From a virus, in the IMG/VR virus record IMGVR_UViG_3300034064_001073, positions 1 through 64,000 of that record: a DNA stretch of 64,000 nucleotides; one strand, 5' to 3'. The position numbers were made by a program, and so were the translations under genes. How positions within the stretch are numbered: the first letter of the stretch is position 1; each line of letters opens with the position of its first letter. The notes beneath the pieces were generated by a model. That model made no database searches, was not told where the DNA came from, and saw nothing but the letters and a program-made list of their open reading frames with translations. Shown in pieces: positions 41,880 to 64,000 of the stretch.

Positions 41880-42695
41880 TTAGACTTTCACGTCTAGTGG
41901 GTTAAACTTTCCTGAAACAAAGCCAGAACGCACTTGTTGAACAAGATAGTTCTCAGCTTTATTTATATCATGATTTCGTAATTCTTTGTATTTACTAGCC
42001 ACTCTTCGCTCTACAGATGTCCAGTATTCTGGTGTAATATCCATTGCATCTTCAATGGTATTTACATCAAGCTTCTTACCAAGCTCTTTAGGCTCAGCAG
42101 AATCTTCAATGATAATCTCTTCTGACTCTGAACTATCGGCAACCTCAGTTGTCGCTTCTTCGGCCGAATCCATTGGGCCACTCATTTCTTCTTCAATTTC
42201 CTCACCGGAAGATTCACTTGGAATTTCCATGCCAGCAGTCTGAAGAGAGGAACCAAGTTGCCACTGCCACTTCTGATGCATATCAATACGCTCAGCTACG
42301 AAGTTTGCAACACCTTGCTCATTGGCAGCATTAGCCATGTCAAAGACATCCTTAAGCATAGCAAGCATCACCACATTCTTCTTGTACATATCAAGAGCAA
42401 GTTCACTTGCTTCAGTAGTCATAGAATCATCTTTGATTGATGCAGTCTCGACCATGTAAGTAAGAGAGTGAGGAAATGAACCAAGCTTGCGGATATTTTC
42501 AGCAAGTGGGTCTACTGAACTAGAGTAGATGTCATCATAGATATTTCCAAATAGCTCATGATACTGAGCAAAATCAGGGCCAGCAACATTCCAATGTGCA
42601 CGATGTGCAGTAGAGTACAGAGCAATTACATTGCTAAGCAGGCCTTTGAGGGCATCAGCCACTTGAGCTGTACTAGTTGTCATTTCAGTTTCCAT
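41880..42695 (-). CDS. dps: Dps-family ferritin with acidic/scaffold-like C-terminal extension
   Basis: 271 aa. AHWNVAGPDFAQYHELF..D..VDPLAENIRKLG (Dps ferroxidase residues) and HQKWQWQL, followed by about 120 extra residues. GGAGG RBS. Confidence 0.85.
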   Translation of the reverse strand: METEMTTSTAQVADALKGLLSNVIALYSTAHRAHWNVAGPDFAQYHELFGNIYDDIYSSSVDPLAENIRKLGSFPHSLTYMVETASIKDDSMTTEASELALDMYKKNVVMLAMLKDVFDMANAANEQGVANFVAERIDMHQKWQWQLGSSLQTAGMEIPSESSGEEIEEEMSGPMDSAEEATTEVADSSESEEIIIEDSAEPKELGKKLDVNTIEDAMDITPEYWTSVERRVASKYKELRNHDINKAENYLVQQVRSGFVSGKFNPLDVKV

Positions 42696-52564: not shown

Positions 52565-53467
52565 TTAGTAAGATAGCATTGAAGACGTCCCATATATAGC
52601 AGTTGAACCTGAGTATCTTGCTTTTGGAGCGCTCATCATATAACTCTCATTTCCTATAGCTTTCATTGCACTGAATCTAGAATTTTCCATTGCATTTATA
52701 GAACGTTGCCTAATGCTTGCGCCCATTGAGCTAGACATACCTGGAGTTGGACCTCTATTCCAAGAAATACCGCCCATTCTGCCAGACCTAATATACTGTG
52801 CACCTTGGTTTCTAACATCAAAAATCTTAAAAGCAGTATAGCCTGCAGCAGCAGCAACTGCGGCTCCAGTTAATCCAACCATAGGATTAAGCAAGGCCCC
52901 AGCAATAACTTTGTTTTGAACAAGCCCAGTAGCAATGCCAAGAGCTGTATTGCCTACGCCTCCGACTATACCTGCTTGCCTATAGCCTGATTTAAAGTCG
53001 CCAATAGCACCGTGCGCCATAAGAGCAGGAGCAATAATCGTAGATAGACCTCCCATCTTGACTAACTGTTTGTTTAGCCAGCCATCTCCAACTTGATCAA
53101 GAAGTTTAAAGCCATGATATCGGGCACCATGAAAAAACTTTGAAATGCCACTCGAATTGCTATGTGCCGCAGAGATATAGTTTTTCCAACCTTGGTAAGC
53201 GTCATCTAAATTATTAGCCACTTGCCAAAAAGCTTCTTCAGCCCTATATACTGGATGTACATATCCAGTTGAGCCTAAGGCTCTGCCAAAGAAAGAGTCA
53301 ATAAACCCTGATGCTTTACCACTTTGGTCAAAACCAGTAACTCTACGGTTTAAACCAAAGTCATTGATTACTGAACCTAAGCCTGCAAAAAAACCTCTAG
53401 TAGTTAAGTCTAGTTCGTTTTGAACAAAACCACTATTATAGATTCTTGAACCGTAGTTCCTATTTAC
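52565..53467 (-). repeat. duplicated 903-bp 3' gene segment, copy B
   Basis: VNRNYGSRIYNSGFVQNELDLTTRGFFAGLGSVINDFG...MLSY. Same length as copy A, roughly 70% aa identity by eye. Confidence 0.9.
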
Positions 53468-55801
53468 AGACCCTGGTGGTGCCATTGGACTTCCTAAGAC
53501 AGCTGGACTAGTACCTGTTTTTAATCCTTGAAGGGCTTTGTAAGTACCTACAGCAGCACCTGCTCCTCCTATTATAGCAGCGCCTGTTATCAGTGCCCCT
53601 GAAAGACTTGACGGACCCGCTGGGGCTCCTGTCGCAGCAGATGCTATGCTTGGGAAAGCTGCTGCAGCCGCTCCTACGGCAATGCCTATTCCAAGGCCTT
53701 TTAATGATTTAAGTCTTCTTATTCTGTCAGGGGTAAGTTTAAATCTAGCTTTAATTTCTTTTTCTGCGGTTTGCAGTATTTTTCGAGACTTAGCGTTGTC
53801 AGATCTAGAATGAAAATTTAAAGTTCTAGGCCTATCTAAGTGTCCAAATGGAAGTCCAGTTTCTGGGTCATTTTTTTTAATACCTAGCATCTTCGTAAGA
53901 TGCTCTCGGGCCTTGTGTGGCTGTGAAGCTTCTTGAGTTCCAAAAAATTGTCTAAAAGTTTCAAAGAATGAAGAAATTTCTCTAGTTCTTCCAAGTGGAG
54001 TAGCAGCGTCTCCGTTTGATGGAAATGCTTGTTGAATTTCTTTTACAAAAGGATGACTAGCATGAGTACTATTTAACTGTTTGTACCCCCAGTCAAAAAA
54101 GCCATTGCCTCTGCTTAAGGCAAAGCCTATATCCTCCGGAGTACCCTCTTCGCTTATAAGATAGCCAAATTCCGCTCCTACCTTCATCTCTCGTTGGTGA
54201 GCGCCATTTCCAACGCAAAAATTGCCACCATATTTAATATTTATTGCATTAGCTCCTATTTGGGCTTCTTCAGCCGTGGCTAATCTAAGCTTTAATTTTT
54301 TACCTAAAAATTCACCAGAAGTTTCAATCTCTCTAGGCATATTAGTAGAAACATCGGTAGGAAGACCCGCTCTTAACCCAATCCAAGAATCTACAACATC
54401 ATTTATATTTTTAATTCCTCCTAAAATACTTTGTTCATTCTTGCCCTTATTTTCAAAATAATAACTTAAAAATTGCCCATACCCACCAGCAAGAAAAGGT
54501 TTAATTGCAGCAGCTACCTCTCTGCCGGTTGAAGCATCTATTTTTGCCAGAATAGGATGTAATCCTTCTTCAACTGCAGCCATTGCTGATGGAGATTTAA
54601 ATAAGAAATCTTGTAGTCCTGGGCTTGCACTAGGAAGAAAATGTGCAGCAGCAAGATCTACGTCAGAAACACCTATAAAATCTCTACCAGTTGCGAGAGA
54701 AGTTCTATTTATCAAAGAATCCCCTGGAGATTTGCCAGCCCGTAAAGGCGCAGGCCTTCGACCTGCTACTGCTCCTATATCCCATTGGGAATCCGTAACT
54801 GAAGGTAGGACTTCTCGATCGCTAAAACCTTTCAAAACAAAAGGTAAATTTTTTCCCTTAACAAAAGGAAGTATAGCCTTGATTTCTCCCGGTAAAGAAT
54901 CAATATTTTGTCCAATTTTATTTGCTCTTCCAGCAAAGTCTGAGAATTCCATGAGAGAAAGATCTATTTGTCTACTCTCAGGTACAATTCCGAAAGCTTT
55001 AGCTTTTTTTGTTCTTTCTGGAACAGCTGCTGCAGTTTGAGACCACTGAAGCAAGTCCTCATCTGTCACCGGAGTTTGCCAATATCTTTTTGCTGCTTTT
55101 AATTCTTCAGTATGATATGTTCTGCCTAAATGCTCAGCTTTTAGAGTCAATCCAACAGGTAACGCAGGAATTCTTTTTTCTGCAGTGCGAGGGTAGTCAA
55201 GTAACGCTTTTCCTGCATGATTTAGGCCAGCTCCACCTTCATCATATATCTGATCACTATTAGAAGGATCTATATATTCAAAAACTTTCATTACCGCTTC
55301 CATAGCGGGTCTATCATGGTAATCTAAAATAGCATCTGACATTCTCATGACTGGATTTGGGTCACCTAGTCCAGCAGATGAAATAGAAAACCTTGAAGTT
55401 TGCTTAAACGCGGTGTCATTAAAATGATACAAGGCACTAAAAACTCTATCCGCAGTTAAACCTTCTTCAGCCATCATAGGCGCAAATCTACGCCAATTTA
55501 TTTCAAAATTGTTTCGAACGGATTGTCCATCTATCTGACCTGTTCTAGAAACTAAATTTCTATTTTGGCTTGTTTGTATTTCTTTAAAATTACTATCTGT
55601 AATAGCACCTTGCTCAAGATCATAAATATCTTTAATGCTGCTTGCATTAAGTGTGTTAGAGGCGTTACTATATCTAGGGGATTTTGTTGCATCAGTAACC
55701 GTTTCCGCTATATCTGGAAAAATATTTTGCAAACGACTAATGTCTGCATTGCCAAGATACATCTCATCTATAACTTTTTTAAGATCTGGATTTTCAGCCA
55801 T
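52565..55801 (-). CDS. putative ejected virion protein B: unique N-terminus + signal-peptide-like hairpin + conserved 300-aa C-terminal domain
   Basis: 1078 aa. The last 300 aa are colinear and ungapped with those of 55815..58661. GGNFCVG is weakly PcfJ-like. Confidence 0.6.
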   Translation of the reverse strand: MAENPDLKKVIDEMYLGNADISRLQNIFPDIAETVTDATKSPRYSNASNTLNASSIKDIYDLEQGAITDSNFKEIQTSQNRNLVSRTGQIDGQSVRNNFEINWRRFAPMMAEEGLTADRVFSALYHFNDTAFKQTSRFSISSAGLGDPNPVMRMSDAILDYHDRPAMEAVMKVFEYIDPSNSDQIYDEGGAGLNHAGKALLDYPRTAEKRIPALPVGLTLKAEHLGRTYHTEELKAAKRYWQTPVTDEDLLQWSQTAAAVPERTKKAKAFGIVPESRQIDLSLMEFSDFAGRANKIGQNIDSLPGEIKAILPFVKGKNLPFVLKGFSDREVLPSVTDSQWDIGAVAGRRPAPLRAGKSPGDSLINRTSLATGRDFIGVSDVDLAAAHFLPSASPGLQDFLFKSPSAMAAVEEGLHPILAKIDASTGREVAAAIKPFLAGGYGQFLSYYFENKGKNEQSILGGIKNINDVVDSWIGLRAGLPTDVSTNMPREIETSGEFLGKKLKLRLATAEEAQIGANAINIKYGGNFCVGNGAHQREMKVGAEFGYLISEEGTPEDIGFALSRGNGFFDWGYKQLNSTHASHPFVKEIQQAFPSNGDAATPLGRTREISSFFETFRQFFGTQEASQPHKAREHLTKMLGIKKNDPETGLPFGHLDRPRTLNFHSRSDNAKSRKILQTAEKEIKARFKLTPDRIRRLKSLKGLGIGIAVGAAAAAFPSIASAATGAPAGPSSLSGALITGAAIIGGAGAAVGTYKALQGLKTGTSPAVLGSPMAPPGSVNRNYGSRIYNSGFVQNELDLTTRGFFAGLGSVINDFGLNRRVTGFDQSGKASGFIDSFFGRALGSTGYVHPVYRAEEAFWQVANNLDDAYQGWKNYISAAHSNSSGISKFFHGARYHGFKLLDQVGDGWLNKQLVKMGGLSTIIAPALMAHGAIGDFKSGYRQAGIVGGVGNTALGIATGLVQNKVIAGALLNPMVGLTGAAVAAAAGYTAFKIFDVRNQGAQYIRSGRMGGISWNRGPTPGMSSSMGASIRQRSINAMENSRFSAMKAIGNESYMMSAPKARYSGSTAIYGTSSMLSY

Positions 55802-55814
55802 GTTAGCCTCTTGT

Positions 55815-56717
55815 TTAATAGGATAGTACTGGAGTTATCCCATGGATTCCAGTTGAATTAGCATATCTGCTTTTTGGAACATTCATCATGTAGCTTTCAT
55901 TGCCCATTGCTTTCATTGCATTAAATTTCGAGTTGTTCATAGAGTTAAGTGCCCGCTGTCTTGCCGTTGCTGCCATTGAGCCTGACATACCAGGTGTTGG
56001 GCCACGATTCCAAGACAAGCCACCCATTCTACCTGATCTTATATAGTTAGCACCTTCATTCCTGACATCAAAGATTTTGAATGCAGCATAGCCAGCTGCA
56101 GCTGTAATACCTGCGCCTAATAGGCCAGTAAGTGGATTAAGCAAAATACCAGCAATAACTTTATTCTGAACAAGACCACTTATAAGACCAGTCACAGTCT
56201 TAAGAGCGCCACCAATCAGTCCACCTCTTCTGTAACCTTCTTTAAAGTCAGTTAAAGCTCCATGTGCCATTAATGCGGGCGCTACTACAGTGCTAAATCC
56301 GCCTGCTTTAACTAGTTGTTTATTTAGCCATCCGTCTCCAACTGAATCTAAGGCTCTGAAGCCATGATATCTAACTCCCTGAAAAAGCTTGCTAATTCCA
56401 CTTGAGTTCTTATATGAAGTATTGATATAGTCTTTCCATCCCTGGTAAGCATCATCTATGTTATGTGCAACTTTCCAGAAGGCTTCTTCTTTCCTAAAAA
56501 CAGGATGAACATATCCGTCTCCTTTTAATGACTTACCAAAAAGAGAATCAATAAAGCTATCAGGAGCGCCACTAGTATCAAAGCTACCTGTTCTTCTATT
56601 AAAACCAAAGTCGTTAATAACTGATCCAAGACCAGCAAAGAAACCTCTTGTAGTAAGATCAAGTTCGTTCTGAACAAAACTGCTGTTATAGATACGAGAT
56701 CCTCTGTTTCTATTTAC
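55815..56717 (-). repeat. duplicated 903-bp 3' gene segment, copy A
   Basis: VNRNRGSRIYNSSFVQNELDLTTRGFFAGLGSVINDFG...VLSY. Confidence 0.9.
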
Positions 56718-58661
56718 CGCACCTGCTGCTCCAGCGGCACCAGCGGCTCCTGCGCCACCTCCTGCACCACCACCAGCCGCACCTGCGGCCGCCGCCCCAG
56801 TCTTTCCTATCTTAGTGAATAAGTAAGCACCAACACCTGCTGCAGTAGCAACTCCAGCCCCAATAGCCAATGTACTACCAAGTCCACCATCTGTAGGACT
56901 AGTCCCCGTTGAAGCTGATGCAGCAGCAGGAAGACCAATACCCAACGCCCCTATCAGGCCTATTATGCCAAAAGTTTTACCATGTTTGTTTATAGCCTTG
57001 ACTGCCCTCTCAATGCCTGTTTCAACATTTTTAAGACTTTTACCTCCAGGAAGAAGTTCCGCAGGAACATCAGCATAGAATAGTTCTGCCTGCTTAGCTA
57101 ATTGTTCGTGTATCTCTCTAGGACTAAATCCAAACATAAGGGCAGCATCTGGAGCCATTGCAGTCTTCCGAGTGGGACCCCTGCCAAAAAGAGGATAATC
57201 AAAACCCGCATCAAGAGCCTCTTCATAGTATTTTGACTTTACAAAATTATGTAAATCAATAGCCTCATCAGTATACCCTAAAGCTTTACCAATTTCTTTG
57301 TGATATTCAATAGTGCCTTCTGTTCCAGCTTCAGCGTGTTTCTTTATAATCTCAATAGCCTTATCAACCGTTTCTCTGGGTCCATAAAGGTATTCTGATG
57401 CATTAGATGCATTTGGAACTAAAGAACCAATTTCAACTTCAATATTGGGTGGTGTGCCTCTAGGCTCCCACCCGGGAGCACCTGTATCTCTTTCAAAGTC
57501 ATGTTTTATTCTTCCACGGAGATACACGTCTTTGGGATTTTGGTCTTCTAAATCATTAAGTAATCTTGTAGGGCTACTTCCCATGTAAAGAGGTTTTTTG
57601 CCTTTTGTTACTAGATCTATTTCACTAGCCTCATCGAGTACGCCCATGCCGTGAGGTGCAAGCTTTGTTTTTATTTCTAGGGCCTCAGGTAACCCCTCAT
57701 CAAACATAGCGTGGGTCGCTGCATAGTACCGGAGTGGCCCATTGTAACCATTGCCTCCATATGTGAAATGACTCATCTGCGTTGGAAGTCTAGAACCTGA
57801 ATTCTGTATGCTCAAAAAAGGATAGTTCTTCTGGACTTGGGCAGGAGAACAACAATTAAGATACAAATCTTTAATTTTACCTAATTCCTCAACGCTTTCA
57901 TCACTCCACTGCCTCCACCCGCCGTCACCACCGCCTGGGGAGTTCCAGTGACTATGTAAAGTTCCATCTGTGCCTCCATGTATAGTTCCGAGGAATATTT
58001 GTTGTCCACTGGTTGTACCAGGCTTCAGCTTTCCAGACAACTGTACAGCATAAGAACCCGCCGAACCTTCTTGGTTAAACAACCTGGAGTGGTCTTGACT
58101 TACACTGAAAACATTATGTTGAGAAAGAAAATTCTGCGCACCTGCTCTTGTTTGCTTCTGATGAGGCTGCCCCTGCGACGTTGGATGGCTATGCGCATCT
58201 CTTACTTGTCTTACTAGGCCATAAAAATCATCGTCCTCAAGAGTTTTCTTACCCCAATCCGTTGCATCATATGCCTCAAATATAGCTCCATCTCTATGCC
58301 ACTGCGCGTCATCATAATTTAAACCTTCTATTTTTTTCAAAAACTCAGGCGAGCGCACAGCAGCTCTACCTTCTGGGCTGTCTCTAAACTGCTCTTGGCT
58401 TAAGAATCTAGGGCCTCGGCCAGCTGCTTTATCTGCGTTCCACTGTCTTAATTCTTCCTGTTCTTTTTTCTCGTAAGCTCTGTTTCCTTCTACAACTCTA
58501 TTACTCTCGTAACTAGCACGTCTTTTCTCGTTACTATCATTTTCTGCGCCAAACCAATGCTTATCAACTTTCAGAGGCGGCAATACTCCACCATGAGTGC
58601 CAAAGAAATCATGCAGCTTATCCGCTGCAGTATTAAGGAAATCGTAAATCTTCTCAGACAT
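55815..58661 (-). CDS. putative ejected virion protein A: caspase-like His/Cys domain + LGY domain + signal-peptide-like hairpin + conserved C-terminal domain
   Basis: 948 aa. FLGTIHGG (H228) and LYLNCCS (C270/271); GKKP...HKEIGKALGY; C-terminus paralogous to 52565..55801. Confidence 0.6.
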   Translation of the reverse strand: MSEKIYDFLNTAADKLHDFFGTHGGVLPPLKVDKHWFGAENDSNEKRRASYESNRVVEGNRAYEKKEQEELRQWNADKAAGRGPRFLSQEQFRDSPEGRAAVRSPEFLKKIEGLNYDDAQWHRDGAIFEAYDATDWGKKTLEDDDFYGLVRQVRDAHSHPTSQGQPHQKQTRAGAQNFLSQHNVFSVSQDHSRLFNQEGSAGSYAVQLSGKLKPGTTSGQQIFLGTIHGGTDGTLHSHWNSPGGGDGGWRQWSDESVEELGKIKDLYLNCCSPAQVQKNYPFLSIQNSGSRLPTQMSHFTYGGNGYNGPLRYYAATHAMFDEGLPEALEIKTKLAPHGMGVLDEASEIDLVTKGKKPLYMGSSPTRLLNDLEDQNPKDVYLRGRIKHDFERDTGAPGWEPRGTPPNIEVEIGSLVPNASNASEYLYGPRETVDKAIEIIKKHAEAGTEGTIEYHKEIGKALGYTDEAIDLHNFVKSKYYEEALDAGFDYPLFGRGPTRKTAMAPDAALMFGFSPREIHEQLAKQAELFYADVPAELLPGGKSLKNVETGIERAVKAINKHGKTFGIIGLIGALGIGLPAAASASTGTSPTDGGLGSTLAIGAGVATAAGVGAYLFTKIGKTGAAAAGAAGGGAGGGAGAAGAAGAAGAVNRNRGSRIYNSSFVQNELDLTTRGFFAGLGSVINDFGFNRRTGSFDTSGAPDSFIDSLFGKSLKGDGYVHPVFRKEEAFWKVAHNIDDAYQGWKDYINTSYKNSSGISKLFQGVRYHGFRALDSVGDGWLNKQLVKAGGFSTVVAPALMAHGALTDFKEGYRRGGLIGGALKTVTGLISGLVQNKVIAGILLNPLTGLLGAGITAAAGYAAFKIFDVRNEGANYIRSGRMGGLSWNRGPTPGMSGSMAATARQRALNSMNNSKFNAMKAMGNESYMMNVPKSRYANSTGIHGITPVLSY

Positions 58662-58665
58662 AAGC

Positions 58666-61014
58666 TTATCCTCTTCTTAGCGCACTCAAGGCAAGTGTCA
58701 AATTACCATCATCATTGTACTGCCCCGGCCTAGATCTACTTCTAGTAGGCTTAAGACTTGGGTTTTGGAAGTACAACTCATCTGCGTCATTTAATCCAAC
58801 CATAGAAGGATTAGTCATTCTAACTCTATTAGATTGATCTGCCTGCATCTGTGCTTCTGCGCTGATGTTTTGTTTTGTTGCTCCAGCTAGTGCATTAATA
58901 GGGTGGTCAGCAGGTGCTCCATACGCAGAAGCTTTAGCTGCTGCCCCTACAAATCCAACTGCAGCACCTGCGCCACCTAATCCAAACATTAATGCATTAT
59001 CAGACATAAAACCTGTATTCATTGCAGGTCGAATAGGCACGCCAGCAGGAGCTGCAGGAGCTGTTGCAGGTTGTCCAGGTTTCGCAGGCTTAGCAGCAGG
59101 AGTAACAGTGTGAATGCCAGGTTTTGCAGGATCAAATTCATATGATCTATTAATTCTATGTGCACCTCCAAAGAAATTGTCTTTCTTATACTGCTGAAGA
59201 ACTTGCCGCTCATTCTGTTCAGCGGGCGTCATTCTTGCTGGTAAATTACCTTTCTGAGTTTTCTTTGGGGCTAATTGCTCTAATCTTTCATTGACAGTTG
59301 GAGTAGCAACATCTTTTTCTCTGTAAGGAGTCAATACATCTTTCTCATATGAATTCGCTGCATATCTACCAAGATAAACTGGAGCACCTGCCGCCATACC
59401 AGCTGCACCGGCACCAATTCTACCTATGTCTTGAAATAGAGAACCTGCCATATCTTTTTGGCCTGGCTCAATCATTGCATCTTTTTCTGTCTGGCTAAAA
59501 CGTCTTCTTAAGTCGCTAACTTGCTGATTCTCTGCAGTTGGTTTAAGTTTTGCTTCCTGTTTAAGTAACTCCTGCTTGTTTGATTGTAAAGCACCTATTT
59601 CATCTGTTGCTGCAGCTTCTGCTTTCTGAGCAACTGAATGCGCATTATAGTCTTCTACAAACTGATCAGCTCCTTTCCCAGTTGGAACGGGAGTAGGGGG
59701 AGTAGGAAGATTATACACACCAAAAGAGCCATGATTAGCAGGATAGACACCACGGGACTTAGCTTGCTGAGTTTGTTGACGAGTTGCAGGAGGCGCTGAG
59801 TATTTTATTCCAGCAGCCGCTTGTGCTTTCTCCTCAGGAGTTCCATTCAGTTGCGCATTCAGTCTGGCTCTTTCAGCTCTTGCTTGTGCTGGAGTCATGC
59901 TTGCAAAAGGATTAGTACTTGTTGCTCCTTTAAAATTCTCTGGATTCTTAGGGTCTAATCTTTTGTCTAAGTTTGCCATCTCTTCTAGTCTCTCATCATA
60001 AACGTCATCAGCAACAGGCTTTGCTCCTGCTTTCACACTGTCATCATAAGCCATTTTTTTTTCACCATTTTTCCATCTTTGATCTCTGAGACTTTGGAGT
60101 CTTTCATTCAAACTATGTCTATTGGTGCTTAATTCAGTATGAATAGCATCAAACTCAGTCTGCAAAGCGGGATCAGTCAATGCAGCTTTTACATCTGCTT
60201 GCGGTGATCGCCCAGTCATTCCTACTGTTTTTGCAATTTCGCCTCTTCTAACTCTTAGTTGCCTAGCTCTTTCTCTCTCTGCAGCTTGTTGAGCTTTTGT
60301 TAGTTGTGGCATTCCCCCAAGAGTGGTCTCTAGTCCTGTAATTTCTGCCTCTAGCCTAGTATCCTCTGCAGCTAAACGAGGACCCTCCGATTGACGTACA
60401 ATTTGAGGTCCAGTTGCTGGCTTTGCGGGAGTTCCTTGCCATTTTCCAACCAAAGCCTCTTGCTGTTCTCTTGCGGCAGTCTGTTTTTTTGCAGCCTCGT
60501 CTATTGCTGTGTCAATCCTAGTTACAGCTTCTTTATTTCCTTTTACTGCTGTTCTTGCTTGTCTTTGTCTTTGTACTGCCATAGTAGGAGTAGCAGTTAC
60601 TGTGTCCATTACAGAATCTGTATAAGCTTCAAAGTCGTCAACATTTCCACCTGCAACTGTTTGAAATCCTTGTCTCAGCGCACCAAAAAGAGTCTTTGGT
60701 CTGTTTGGATTAACTGCGTCATAGGCTTTTAATCCGTCAGGGGTCATCATTGAGCGACCAATTGCTCTTAAACCGTAGTCAGCACCCTGAGCTGCAATAC
60801 CAACTGCTCCTCCTACCATAGCTCCAGTAGCCGCTGCTCCTACTCTGCCTGCAACAGGAGTTTCTCCTAGGTATTCATCCTCTTCTGGATTATAACTATA
60901 GGCTCCCTTGATACCACCAGCAATAGCACCTACACCACCAATTCCTAAAGTCCCACCAACGTGGGAAGCAGCTCCACTCATTGACTTGAAAAAATTAACA
61001 ATTGCGTTTGCCAT
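58666..61014 (-). CDS. Ala/Gly/Pro-rich coiled-coil protein with glycine zippers (putative internal/ejected virion protein)
   Basis: 782 aa. GxxxG arrays near both termini (GGTLGIGGVGAIAGGIKG; FGLGGAGAAVGFVGAAA). TAATG overlap with the upstream gene. Confidence 0.5.
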   Translation of the reverse strand: MANAIVNFFKSMSGAASHVGGTLGIGGVGAIAGGIKGAYSYNPEEDEYLGETPVAGRVGAAATGAMVGGAVGIAAQGADYGLRAIGRSMMTPDGLKAYDAVNPNRPKTLFGALRQGFQTVAGGNVDDFEAYTDSVMDTVTATPTMAVQRQRQARTAVKGNKEAVTRIDTAIDEAAKKQTAAREQQEALVGKWQGTPAKPATGPQIVRQSEGPRLAAEDTRLEAEITGLETTLGGMPQLTKAQQAAERERARQLRVRRGEIAKTVGMTGRSPQADVKAALTDPALQTEFDAIHTELSTNRHSLNERLQSLRDQRWKNGEKKMAYDDSVKAGAKPVADDVYDERLEEMANLDKRLDPKNPENFKGATSTNPFASMTPAQARAERARLNAQLNGTPEEKAQAAAGIKYSAPPATRQQTQQAKSRGVYPANHGSFGVYNLPTPPTPVPTGKGADQFVEDYNAHSVAQKAEAAATDEIGALQSNKQELLKQEAKLKPTAENQQVSDLRRRFSQTEKDAMIEPGQKDMAGSLFQDIGRIGAGAAGMAAGAPVYLGRYAANSYEKDVLTPYREKDVATPTVNERLEQLAPKKTQKGNLPARMTPAEQNERQVLQQYKKDNFFGGAHRINRSYEFDPAKPGIHTVTPAAKPAKPGQPATAPAAPAGVPIRPAMNTGFMSDNALMFGLGGAGAAVGFVGAAAKASAYGAPADHPINALAGATKQNISAEAQMQADQSNRVRMTNPSMVGLNDADELYFQNPSLKPTRSRSRPGQYNDDGNLTLALSALRRG

Positions 61015-64000
61015 TATCTGCGCTCCTTGCGTCTGCCTCTGTTGCGTTCTAAGCCACCAGCCATTGCCATAATTTGCATATCAGCCATACCGTTTTTCCT
61101 GCCTCTAGAAGCTGCGTTCACAGACTGAAAAATTTCATTATAGTCATTATAAGACATATCCATAGCATAGGTCATTTCTTCGTTTCTGGCTTGTGAGGCG
61201 TCTACAGCCTGCTGCTTAGAGGTGCCAGGACTTCTATCAAAGTGGAACTTAAAAGCACTTGCAGGACTTAAAACGTTATAGCCTTTTCTTTCTTTGCCAG
61301 GAATACCAGTATGTACACCTGCATAAAATGGATCCGAAAACATCCCCTTATCCGATGCTCTGGCTATTCTTTCTGCTGCGTTAAATTGCTTCTGGTTTAC
61401 AAGATCTTCTTGGGCAGTATTTCTATATAGTACAGTTGCTAAGCCTTGATTGACCATTTCATATGAATAGTTGATTCCAGAGTCGTCAGTTACAATACCA
61501 ACTGAACGACCAAATGTACTACCCTGGCCAGTTACAACTTGGGCTCCAGTTCTAGCCGAAAGTACGTTCGTTAAGTATTGCTTGCCTCTTTGAGCAAATG
61601 GCATTTCGCCAGGACCACCAAAGCCTTCGTGAGCAGTTTCAGGAGCATCCATACCAGAAAGACGAACGCTACCAAGATTACGCCTACCTAAACCCATAAA
61701 TCCTTTACTGATAATTTCTACTGTATCCGCGTCGCCAACTGCGTAATCAACTTTACTAGAATCAATGGCAGACACAGCAAAACCTGCAGGATTCATCTTA
61801 TCAATACCAGTATTAGTGGGAGTCATGACATTTCGCATTGCCCCTCTTCCGCCTCTCTCCCTGACATCCTCAGGGTTAAGTATTTCTCTTTCATCGCCAG
61901 ACATTTTCAGTATATCTTTTGTTGTAGGCTTGTAGCTTGGCATATCTACCATATAATTAGCAGAAGCTCCAGTGACAAATGCGCCAGCTGCGCCAGCCAT
62001 ACCAAGTCCTCTTCTTGCATTCTTCATAATGTACTCAGAAATCTCTGGGCTTGCTCCAGATATCCTGCTCATTAATCCACTGTCTAGTCCTCTTGGGCTA
62101 AAGAGAACAGAGCCAACTGTATCTACTCCTAATTTTAACTTATCTTTTGCAGAAACTGCAAAATTATAAGCAGATCCGATTGTTTCATAATTAGGAGTAA
62201 CAACCTTAGGAGTACTGTAATCGCCTGTCGCGACTAACTCTTTTTTTCTTTCAGATATAGCTTCATATATAAAATCTGCAGAAGAAGCAAGTCTTTCAGC
62301 TCCTGAGCCCCTATTAAGTCTTGATCTAATCCCTTGGATTGTTGGAGCCAAAGAAGTATCTAGAGCGCTTCTAAAGCCGTCACCGCCTGACATTCTTAAA
62401 GCTAAAGAAGCACGAGACACTTCATCTTCTGTCATAGATGGAGTAACAGCTATTCCTTGTTCTGAAAGCCTATCAACTTCATCTTGACTAAAAAGTCTTC
62501 CTGCCTGGTTTTCCTGATGAAGATGAGACTTAAGATCTAGAAGTCTACTGCCCAAATCTCTTGCTTTGATTCCTCTTGCTGTAAAGTTATCACCTTCAGC
62601 ATACCTTCTAATGACAGTGCTCTTCACCCTATTTCTAGCAACGGTCTTCAACTCATCTACGCTGACAGGTAAATCCGTACCCATTTGATGTCCTAGCTGA
62701 CTCTTGATTATATCTTCAATTGGCATATTGCCTGCTTTCAACGCAGCAAAAGACCCACTACCATAACGCTTATCAACGTGCATTCTTGTCGCTTCATCTA
62801 ACTCTTTAGTGTATTCATCTTTGATGAAGTCTTGAATATTCCAGTCAGACTGACTCTTTAATACACTTACTTCCGCACCAGTCGCAGTTACCATTGTATG
62901 CTTTATTCTGCCAACAGCCATTGGCATAGAAAATGCTTCATGCATTGCTGGGTTTACATTTATTGTCTGCAATTTTCCAGCTTCATCGGTGTAACTGTGA
63001 GTAATCATATTTGCAGGATTTGGAGCGTATAGCCCCTCTGCGACACCTGTGTAGCTGTCAACCGTTTCATTAATTCTTAATAACTCTTTGTCTAGGTTAT
63101 AAGCTCTTGTTATGTCAGAGTGCGTTCCTTTTATAGTGCCTTTAGTGGCATCTCTACTTAGTTGGCCTTGCTTAATTCCAATAGGTGTATCTCCAAACCA
63201 TTTTTCATCAAGTTCCAATTCCGTATCTTTAATTTTTGCTAACTCAAGCCATCCCAGCTTTTTCTCGTCTCCTAAAATTGACAAGGATGAGAACAAGGAG
63301 CGCACTTGGTCTAGTGCAGACGCAGATTCCTTAGCACGGTAAATATTTGCAACATCATTTAGTACTTCAGGTAACTTACCTTCTTGCAGTAGTCTACCCT
63401 GAACCATAACGTCAGATAAGGCTTGGTGAGCCTCATCAAAGCCAAGAATAACCTGTGAAGCTAAGTTAATATTCGTTCCAGATGTTAAGTCTCCACTAGT
63501 CTCTATCAGACCAGTCTGCATTAGCCCTGAGAATAACATCTTTGTAAGATCAAGCTGATCTCGGGTATTTAACCCAGCTGATACATTCTTAACATAAGCA
63601 GGCAATAAAGAAATAACGTCTTCATTCTTACCTTGTTGTCTTAGTATTCTTGCTTGTTCCGTGAAGAAGAAGTTATTAGCATCAAGAATATTTCTTTTTC
63701 TTTCGCTTTTCCAAGTAGCAGAAAGCATGCTACGCATGTCTCTCAAACTTGTAATTGTTCCACCAAAAGCTCTAGACATGTCCCTGTCAGAGTTTAAGTA
63801 GTTACCGTGGTCTTCGAGTGAAGGCTCAAAAGCATCCGCAACGCCACTGCGTTTCTGCGTTAAGAAATGTTCCCAAAGTTTACCTACACGAAAAGACTCA
63901 TATGGTAAATTTGCAGCCATAAGTGTTCTTCCTTCTTTGCTTGCCTGTTTGGCAAAAAGCATAGAATGTTTAGCTCCTTCTTTCTGGCTGTATACTCTTT
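61014..64000 (-). CDS. 5'-truncated protein with DEDDh exonuclease-like region and C-terminal staphylococcal nuclease (thermonuclease) domain
   Basis: The frame stays open from 63962 to the window edge (RVYSQKEGAKHS-M). SNase motifs GDADTV, VRLSGMDAPE, TFGRSVG, EMVNQGLA, AERIARASDKGMF. Exo-like ANLPYE, LDLTKM, EAHQALSDV. Confidence 0.75.
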   Translation of the reverse strand, partial: RVYSQKEGAKHSMLFAKQASKEGRTLMAANLPYESFRVGKLWEHFLTQKRSGVADAFEPSLEDHGNYLNSDRDMSRAFGGTITSLRDMRSMLSATWKSERKRNILDANNFFFTEQARILRQQGKNEDVISLLPAYVKNVSAGLNTRDQLDLTKMLFSGLMQTGLIETSGDLTSGTNINLASQVILGFDEAHQALSDVMVQGRLLQEGKLPEVLNDVANIYRAKESASALDQVRSLFSSLSILGDEKKLGWLELAKIKDTELELDEKWFGDTPIGIKQGQLSRDATKGTIKGTHSDITRAYNLDKELLRINETVDSYTGVAEGLYAPNPANMITHSYTDEAGKLQTINVNPAMHEAFSMPMAVGRIKHTMVTATGAEVSVLKSQSDWNIQDFIKDEYTKELDEATRMHVDKRYGSGSFAALKAGNMPIEDIIKSQLGHQMGTDLPVSVDELKTVARNRVKSTVIRRYAEGDNFTARGIKARDLGSRLLDLKSHLHQENQAGRLFSQDEVDRLSEQGIAVTPSMTEDEVSRASLALRMSGGDGFRSALDTSLAPTIQGIRSRLNRGSGAERLASSADFIYEAISERKKELVATGDYSTPKVVTPNYETIGSAYNFAVSAKDKLKLGVDTVGSVLFSPRGLDSGLMSRISGASPEISEYIMKNARRGLGMAGAAGAFVTGASANYMVDMPSYKPTTKDILKMSGDEREILNPEDVRERGGRGAMRNVMTPTNTGIDKMNPAGFAVSAIDSSKVDYAVGDADTVEIISKGFMGLGRRNLGSVRLSGMDAPETAHEGFGGPGEMPFAQRGKQYLTNVLSARTGAQVVTGQGSTFGRSVGIVTDDSGINYSYEMVNQGLATVLYRNTAQEDLVNQKQFNAAERIARASDKGMFSDPFYAGVHTGIPGKERKGYNVLSPASAFKFHFDRSPGTSKQQAVDASQARNEEMTYAMDMSYNDYNEIFQSVNAASRGRKNGMADMQIMAMAGGLERNRGRRKERR

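Follow-up and report, generated by a model that had tools for sequence, protein, structure and literature searches.

In an uncultivated large phage, tandem genes that precede the gene for the large terminase subunit share a carrier module and a candidate signal peptidase junction

Why would a tailed phage keep, next to its large terminase gene, two long tandem genes that end in the same module, begin with unrelated domains and have at the junction what looks like a signal peptide in the middle of a protein? The question is raised by IMG/VR virus record IMGVR_UViG_3300034064_001073, a 79.9-kb viral contig estimated to be 46% complete, of which positions 1 to 64,000 were analyzed (a stretch of 64,000 nucleotides, hereafter the window). 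The genes encode P0001, the paralogue proximal to the large terminase subunit (TerL), and P0002, the distal one; the shared C-terminal module is called the carrier, the N-terminal domains are called cargo, and the positions of all features are collected in Table 1. Our tentative answer is that P0001 and P0002 are late phage polyproteins that would insert into the membrane in the manner of M13 procoat and be split there by host signal peptidase I.

A duplicated module with a hairpin at its junction

Are the two genes truly related? BLASTP aligned residues 698-1078 of P0001 with residues 559-948 of P0002 at 61% identity (E = 3e-153), the final 300 residues being free of gaps. Counted from the stop codons, the last 903 nucleotides (nt) align without a gap at 68% nucleotide and ~71% amino-acid (aa) identity, and beyond them ungapped identity drops to ~30%. 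Within the shared segment, identity is 75% at first, 85% at second and 45% at third codon positions, so that the duplication is an old one, whose 3' ends, colinear and not identical, are kept by purifying selection on the protein. The N-terminal 695 aa of P0001 and 561 aa of P0002 gave nothing significant when compared by BLASTP. A preliminary description of this DNA had claimed a colinear 903-bp shared 3' end behind unrelated N-termini of ~560 and ~700 aa. Both claims hold, and the paralogy is confirmed as real and much stronger than chance. The genes lie 13 nt apart, and the 3' end of P0001 overlaps the start of TerL by 29 nt.

How widespread is the carrier? A profile of its C-terminal 311 residues, searched against 1.84 billion representative proteins, retrieved 145 clusters at E <= 1e-3. 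The module sits at the extreme C-terminus in all 167 sequences, and 145 of these are no longer than 350 aa, that is, the module alone, with a usual stand-alone size of 190-320 aa. About 20 have N-terminal extensions of 230-950 aa, which are confined to the closer carrier lineages. Twelve family members had no match in Pfam, PHROGs or NCBIfam, and the profile had none among PDB sequences. By tblastn, 50,697 phage records held no relative of P0001, P0002 or the short members, and scans of two genome collections found none among 185,579 prokaryote species genomes. The carrier family is thus a previously undescribed phage family of 145 clusters, found across a broad clade of uncultivated 50-176 kb phages.

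What joins cargo to carrier? In both proteins the junction opens with a basic n-region, a hydrophobic h-region and a small-x-small motif; then come a loop of 10 residues, none of them Lys or Arg, another hydrophobic helix (22-23 residues) and a basic flank. The predicted cut sites lie after aa 722 of P0001 and aa 583 of P0002. Among the 20,840 residues of the minus-strand open reading frames (ORFs) in the window, an internal basic patch with a hydrophobic stretch and small-x-small motif behind a charged n-region occurs in P0001 and P0002 only. With our own scripts for hydropathy and charge we tabulated 16 fused family members that have the hairpin. All 16 have Pro at -6 together with A-[S/G]-A, an h-region of 12-18 uncharged residues, the sequence of which differs freely, and a net charge of +2 to +4 after helix 2. 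In 15 of the 16, the stretch of 15 residues ahead of the h-region has a net charge of +2 to +6 (+5 in P0001, +3 in P0002), and Kyte-Doolittle means of the h-region are 1.7-2.3 in the two window proteins. In 13 members the 10-residue loop is free of Lys and Arg, with a net charge of 0 or -1, and the length of helix 2 is 21-26 residues. The element is internal in every member, beginning after 160-700 residues, and never N-terminal.

An n/h/c layout with small residues at -3 and -1 and a helix breaker at -4 to -6 marks signal peptidase I substrates (PMC9360617). The preliminary description had reported such a layout with A-x-A at both junctions; the two elements are found where it placed them (Table 1), and the pattern persists through the family despite third codon positions that vary within the motif among genomes. 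Since these positions vary, selection acts on the junction peptide and not on a DNA site, and a DNA recombination site was set aside on that ground. Two other readings of the junction were discarded: a sortase LPXTG signal in 'LPAVASASTG' has the wrong spacing, and a lipoprotein signal would need a Cys that the junction does not have.

Do cargo and carrier evolve together? P0007, which lies next to TerL in locus L003, has the N-terminal domain, helix 1 and motif of cargo type B' and from the loop onward is 94-100% identical to P0006, a protein with cargo type A. P0001 is 93-100% identical to its orthologue in L005 up to aa 720, then 66% and 40% identical over helix 2 and linker, and again 76-90% identical in the carrier. 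These are two independent recombination breakpoints, and because both fall within a few codons after ASA, cargo with helix 1 and helix 2 with carrier behave as separate cassettes.

A maximum-likelihood tree of 28 carriers tells the same story on a larger scale. Proximal and distal carriers form clades with 100/100 support; the proximal ones bear cargo A (four) or B' (one), the distal ones B (three) or B' (three). Genomes differ in how the two slots are filled (distal cargo first): B + A in the window, B' + A in L005 and B + B' in L003. Hairpin fusions recur in a second, distant carrier clade (P0026, P0028 and P0032, each with a different N-terminus), which is nested among stand-alone and linker-fused carriers. 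The preliminary description had proposed tabulating the N-termini of homologues: these prove to be different, with at least 10 unrelated N-termini, or none, on the C-terminal module, and the carrier tree is incongruent with cargo type. Its logic of constant carrier and variable domain is borne out, and on these comparisons the modular reading of P0001 and P0002 is well supported. Because exchange takes place at a fixed point, cargo and carrier can be studied separately, which should make the system easy to test.

Proposed insertion and splitting at the hairpin

How might such proteins work? In this large-phage lineage the carrier module was duplicated and each copy gained a front cassette, consisting of an orphan 440-700-aa domain and a helix 1 ending in P-x-x-A-S-A; the back cassette comprises helix 2, the linker and the ~300-aa module. 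The charge distribution of the hairpin argues for an N-in/C-in topology with ~10 residues outside and A-S-A at the outer face. In the scheme that we propose, the hairpin would insert into the cytoplasmic membrane from inside, both large domains would stay cytoplasmic, and host signal peptidase I, whose action at this junction may reasonably be supposed, would cut after ASA at the outer face of the membrane. One gene would then give two separately anchored products in equal amounts and in the same place, the cargo keeping helix 1 as a C-terminal anchor and the carrier being held by helix 2. The exchange of helix 1 with cargo and of helix 2 with carrier fits two independent products. In the lineages with extensions, domains have become attached to the carrier N-terminus by either of two routes, a flexible linker or the hairpin.

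Where would this happen? The preliminary description had the protein targeted to the virion or ejection conduit and the hairpin insert in the host inner membrane, with host LepB perhaps cutting the cargo off the carrier. Both steps need correction: the hairpin would meet the membrane of the producing cell first, before it is in any virion, and the N-terminal product would retain helix 1 as its anchor. Insertion and cutting would most simply occur in the producing cell, late in infection. If host signal peptidase does cut here, the hairpin is a natural device to join two proteins and then separate them at the membrane. To our knowledge no phage polyprotein is processed by host signal peptidase, and this one, if the proposal is true, would be the first.

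Several considerations weigh against procoat-like insertion and splitting. Membrane insertion, its topology, the cleavage and the place and timing of both are read from sequence features. The helices are Gly/Ala-rich and moderately hydrophobic, with Kyte-Doolittle 19-residue means of 1.4-1.85, and might instead pack inside a soluble oligomer. In six fused members that have no hairpin, cargo and carrier are joined by long low-complexity Gly/Pro/Ala-rich linkers, and stand-alone members have no membrane anchor, so the carrier does not need the hairpin to function. Embedding of the carrier's own hydrophobic stretch is doubtful, because in an AlphaFold2 (AF2) model this Gly/Ala-rich stretch forms the tip of a long helical hairpin, one arm of which contains a conserved Lys. 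Two breakpoints are few, and the places at which recombination succeeds may be biased by the conserved motif itself. The gain from fusing two halves that are cut apart at once is hard to see, and the envelope type and signal peptidase of the host are assumed.

Could the hairpin then be an uncleaved anchor, or a glycine-zipper element for oligomerization or pore formation, with P-x-x-A-S-A-[S/A]-T serving as a small-residue helix cap or turn? Both helices are Gly/Ala-rich with small-xxx-small spacing, and similar Gly-rich segments occur in P0003, P0004 and small ORFs by TerL in relatives, some of them without a basic n-region. Conservation also reaches positions +1 to +3 (S/A-T-G), beyond what signal peptidase I needs. 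Yet 15-16 of the 16 divergent members retain all of the topogenic features, with h-regions that vary freely in sequence, and both breakpoints lie right after the motif, as if it bounded two independent products. Moreover, a stable membrane span would usually be longer than an h-region of 12-15 residues. We consider this explanation unlikely. Literature on glycine-zipper ejection proteins or on internal signal peptidase sites in phage proteins yielded nothing relevant.

The strict conservation of the junction motif could also point to the phage's own prohead protease, which would trim head-internal proteins at ASA before Ser or Ala during capsid maturation. Large phages process many head proteins at short motifs, and cleavage between Ala and Ser is found in the related herpesvirus assemblins. 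However, the motif lies inside a complete membrane-topogenesis signature, which would be superfluous for a capsid protease; the major capsid protein, portal and other head proteins of the window have no comparable motif context, and scans of the window recognized no prohead protease. We give this explanation hardly any weight.

The carrier and its link to TerL

What does the carrier do when it is alone? We examined 45 further IMG/VR viral loci with short carrier-family members. In all 45, as in the close relatives of the window, the family gene lies on the same strand as, and upstream of, a TerL of the window's clade, and in 17 it abuts or overlaps the TerL start (-8 to +26 nt). One ORF intervenes in 21 loci, mostly a small Gly-rich one of ~110-300 aa, and several ORFs in seven. 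Loci L013 and L014 have a stand-alone module, of 312 and 324 aa, exactly at the position of P0001. The conserved block runs from a four-cysteine (Cys4) protein through a large protein, often with SNase, a Gly/Ala-rich protein and the family gene to TerL, with the portal further on. Most phages of the clade have the module alone, and therefore the carrier should have a job of its own in the head-assembly or packaging part of the late program, linked to terminase and portal. This corrects the earlier picture of a carrier that serves cargo delivery: its own job needs no cargo. The function of the family must have to do with head assembly, with packaging or with the material that accompanies the DNA into the cell.

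Several observations on these loci stand apart. Two of the 17 intervening ORFs scanned matched HNH endonuclease families, and in L045 and L056 the ORF at this position has Cys-rich HNH-like motifs; otherwise Pfam, PHROGs and NCBIfam searches assigned no family to the small Gly-rich ORFs or to the Cys4 protein. A glycine-zipper-like intervening ORF of ~110-180 aa recurs in smaller relatives (L015:8495-8836, L016:7156-7698, L017:5303-5695, L018:7394-7804 and others), with the motif G-x-G-A-G-W-G-M-x-S-S-D-T-S-V-L-G-G ... R-Y-G-G. In many smaller relatives (L015-L059) the family gene/TerL block lies at most 5-9 kb from a contig end, perhaps because the genomes have fixed termini close to the packaging genes. 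P0012 (808 aa, fused, with hairpin) and P0168 (309 aa, stand-alone) are sisters in the carrier tree, each listing a longest contig of 127,867 bp, and one relative may carry one fused and one free copy of the carrier.

Is the carrier a small terminase subunit, or a packaging-initiation factor that binds TerL, with the N-terminal domains as accessories? The gene invariably precedes TerL on the same strand; in many loci its stop and the TerL start overlap or abut (-68 to +26 nt), which suggests translational coupling. The size, 190-320 aa, is suitable, and the window showed no other recognizable small terminase. Long paired helices in the AF2 model and a conserved C-terminal helix that could be the TerL-binding segment would suit this role as well. 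Against it, Pfam, PHROGs and NCBIfam gave no small-terminase match and no DNA-binding domain is recognizable, while Gly/Ala-rich helices, tandem duplication and hairpin fusion to 440-950-aa domains are atypical of ring-forming small terminases. The mostly Gly-rich ORF that stands between family gene and TerL in 21 of 45 loci also counts against this role, which we regard as improbable, and the Cys4 protein is another candidate. In L011:162-1073, L015:3261-4097, L029:1442-2218 and eight other loci (alignment A11), this protein of ~230-310 aa is encoded at the head of the operon, before the giant protein. Its four Cys are invariant, it has a basic region that is helical and a tail that is acidic, and it has no PHROG match; it may be a small terminase or a regulator.

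The AF2 model of the carrier, built from 99 sequences, has a mean predicted local distance difference test (pLDDT) score of 79, exceeding 90 for residues 50-150; an earlier run with nine sequences had reached 44. A small four-stranded sheet with two helices is followed by the very long helical hairpin (152-204, 206-242), which turns at a conserved Leu-Asn-Pro. After a loop come the family's best-conserved helix (T-M-R-Q-R ... N-S ... N ... L-G-N-E) and a conserved tail ending in Tyr; the last ~55 residues are the most conserved stretch of the carrier. Foldseek searches of PDB and BFVD with this model gave no match better than E = 0.03. VIA-align gave single-long-helix matches only (Z 6.8 or lower), in a comparison that effectively covered residues 151-247, the helical part.

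Might the carrier instead take its cargo into the virion? It would then target the protein to the capsid or ejection conduit; the protein would be ejected with the DNA, the hairpin would enter the inner membrane of the new host, and LepB would separate an effector cargo. Within the late operon the genes do belong to the head part, with the giant nuclease-bearing protein on one side and TerL and portal on the other, and a constant part that is C-terminal and best conserved in its last ~55 residues is what a docking peptide would look like. Packaged cargo proteins are often on flexible linkers, as in encapsulin and scaffold-fusion cargo, and relatives of P0001 and P0002 hold their cargo on long linkers of this kind. 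Ejection proteins frequently have Gly-rich hydrophobic helices, and the exchange of cargo between carriers also suits delivery. The family has no PHROG match, though, in a library that includes annotated virion and ejection-protein families, and its constant neighbor, TerL, is not a virion protein. A procoat-like hairpin should moreover insert and be cut in the producing cell, uncoupling the cargo before packaging, and an ejected protein must escape that; a cut cargo would still retain helix 1, so that no soluble release would follow. Cargo with no known toxin or anti-defense domain, and the absence of an immunity-like small gene after either P0002 or P0001, where the next genes are P0001 and TerL respectively, speak further against delivery of an effector. 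We find this route doubtful and prefer to place the hairpin's insertion and splitting in the producing cell.

The wider picture that could be built on procoat-like splitting is, in our view, also doubtful, and slightly more so: a tailed phage that uses host signal peptidase on a polyprotein, the hairpin as a portable junction that needs no protease of the phage and by which any cassette of cargo and helix 1 could be attached to the conserved TerL-linked carrier, the carrier as a new and widespread component of head assembly, packaging or protein ejection in a large clade of uncultivated phages, and the swapped N-termini as effectors directed at host or competitors.

Cargo domains, genome setting and known systems

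What can be said of the cargo? Cargo A, cargo B and ten further fused members had no Pfam, NCBIfam or PDB-sequence match and no toxin or anti-defense domain; with no known domain in any cargo searched, the preliminary label of 'effector' has as yet no basis. Word-index searches with cargo A matched fused proteins only, while cargo B matched nothing, not even itself, probably through candidate saturation. The ESM Atlas gave no usable lead for either cargo, and its model of P0002 had a pLDDT of 0.41. A subdomain of ~90 residues in cargo A (aa 491-573; 54083-54331, minus strand), containing ...NIKYGGNFCVGNG...GFFDWGY, shares 28% identity (pairwise E = 6e-10) with a stretch of a 665-aa protein encoded elsewhere in the genomes of relatives (L061:1294-3288). 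Neither cargo A nor the 665-aa protein has a family match.

Cargo B has a pair of motifs, IFLGTIHGG and DLYLNCCS in P0002, in each of which the residue pair (His-Gly, Cys-Cys) follows a hydrophobic stretch; H228, G229 and C271 are invariant in six sequences. The arrangement, its spacing of His-Gly and Cys included (about 25-45 residues in the clan), resembles the dyad of clan CD proteases, a match at the level of motifs that we treat as a lead. Hidden Markov model searches with PF00656 (C14), PF11713 (C80) and PF12770 (CHAT) found no match in the genome at E <= 10.

The large genes of the window all lie on the minus strand, in a single late operon. In the direction of transcription, the order is P0004 (SNase), P0003, P0002, P0001, TerL, a 149-aa protein, a 760-aa protein, the portal, a 916-aa protein, a Dps/ferritin-like protein, a 496-aa protein and the major capsid protein, and past the latter come tail tube-like proteins and the tail sheath. 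From this content, tail tube-like proteins and sheath included, the phage is a large myovirus. Its close relatives are contigs of 174 kb and 176 kb, both rated complete. The ferritin/Dps-like protein (PF00210, E = 2e-11; phrog_3636) is encoded at 41880-42695, minus strand.

The TerL of the window is ~30% identical at most to that of any cultured phage, the nearest being Moorella MTATph1, Bacillus 0305phi8-36 and Acinetobacter ME3. In the TerL genes that we looked at (window, L016, L021, L031, L054, L055, L057), the clade has an N-terminal extension with conserved Cys residues (C68, C71, C110), and ORFs of ~1000-1450 aa in several relatives suggest inserted elements such as inteins. P0001, P0002 and P0003 all gave no match to Pfam, PHROGs and NCBIfam; in P0003, a C-terminal stretch of ~110 residues that ends LSALRRG is kept in L011, L013 and L014. 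Orthologues of P0004 have 1273-1319 aa, its SNase domain is preceded by a Gly/Ala-rich hydrophobic segment ending GASA, and the SNase part is common to the large protein at the corresponding operon position in many of the distant relatives checked.

Table 1. Positions in the window of the two paralogues, their parts and the adjoining genes (the slash marks the predicted cut site)
Feature	Position	Strand	Remarks
TerL, large terminase subunit, 722 aa	50425..52593	-	phrog_2
P0001, 1078 aa, TerL-proximal paralogue	52565..55801	-	cargo type A + hairpin + carrier
Carrier module of P0001, aa 779-1078	52568..53467	-	proximal-type clade
Loop ATGAPAGPSS (aa 723-732) and second hydrophobic helix (aa 733-754) of P0001	53540..53635	-	Lys-rich residues after; breakpoint against the L005 orthologue at the start of this stretch
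Signal-peptide-like element of P0001, aa 696-722	53636..53716	-	RRLKSLK-GLGIGIAVGAAAAAF-PSIASA/ATG; 15-residue h-region
Cargo type A, aa 1-695 of P0001	53717..55801	-	orphan, only seen fused to carrier
P0002, 948 aa, distal paralogue	55815..58661	-	cargo type B + hairpin + Gly/Ala linker + carrier
Carrier module of P0002, aa 649-948	55818..56717	-	distal-type clade
Loop STGTSPTDGG (aa 584-593), helix 2 (aa 594-616) and Gly/Ala-rich linker (aa 617-648) of P0002	56718..56912	-	
Signal-peptide-like element of P0002, aa 559-583	56913..56987	-	KHGK-TFGIIGLIGALGIGL-PAAASA/STG; 15-residue h-region
Cargo type B, aa 1-558 of P0002	56988..58661	-	20-35% identity to types B, B' of relatives
His-Gly ... 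Cys-Cys motif in cargo B (H228, C270/C271)	57849..57980	-	conserved in six B/B' sequences
P0003, 782 aa	58666..61014	-	Gly/Ala-rich weakly hydrophobic segments near both ends; in conserved block upstream of TerL
P0004, runs off window	61014..64000	-	SNase domain PF00565, E = 7e-12, aa 766-876 of visible part

How does this arrangement compare with known systems? The carrier is like a small terminase subunit in its small size and in a gene upstream of TerL with overlapping stop and start, and unlike one in that it has no family match and no recognizable DNA-binding domain, is hydrophobic and Gly-rich, and has been duplicated and fused. With head-internal and ejection proteins (T4 internal proteins, T7 gp14-16, P22) the paralogues share a place among head-region genes, large size, hydrophobic helices and possibly a common targeting part; however, there is no match in sequence or fold, and the targeting sequence of T4 is N-terminal and removed by the prohead protease.

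Like MuF and other polymorphic toxins (PMC5576092), the proteins combine a constant, family-naming module with variable, recombining domains in a phage head-morphogenesis region. The polarity is inverted, though, with the constant part C-terminal and the variable part N-terminal, there is no recognizable toxin domain or immunity gene, and the cargo is orphan and not shared with other delivery systems. In contrast to MuF systems, the phage is not temperate as far as is visible, and it has no relatives in the 185,579 species genomes. Of the likeness to polymorphic toxins drawn in the preliminary description, the logic of constant and variable parts stands; an N-terminal constant domain, a toxin domain and an immunity gene were not found.

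Enveloped viruses of animals offer another parallel. In their polyproteins, host signal peptidase cuts at internal signal sequences with a small-x-small site, and the step proposed here would likewise split one product into two membrane-associated proteins. We know of no example of such an internal split of a polyprotein by signal peptidase in tailed phage or bacteria.

The closest model is the procoat of M13 and the other Ff phages, with a signal peptide, a short periplasmic loop and an anchor, which is inserted by YidC and cut by leader peptidase. The hairpin shares with it the basic n-region, short h-region, helix breaker, A-x-A, short neutral or acidic loop, helix 2 and basic C-terminal flank (PMC9360617). 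In proteins of the P0001/P0002 type, unlike procoat, the element is internal, after 460-720 residues of cytoplasmic domain, and a further 330-390 residues follow, so that a cut would split a polyprotein and not remove a leader.

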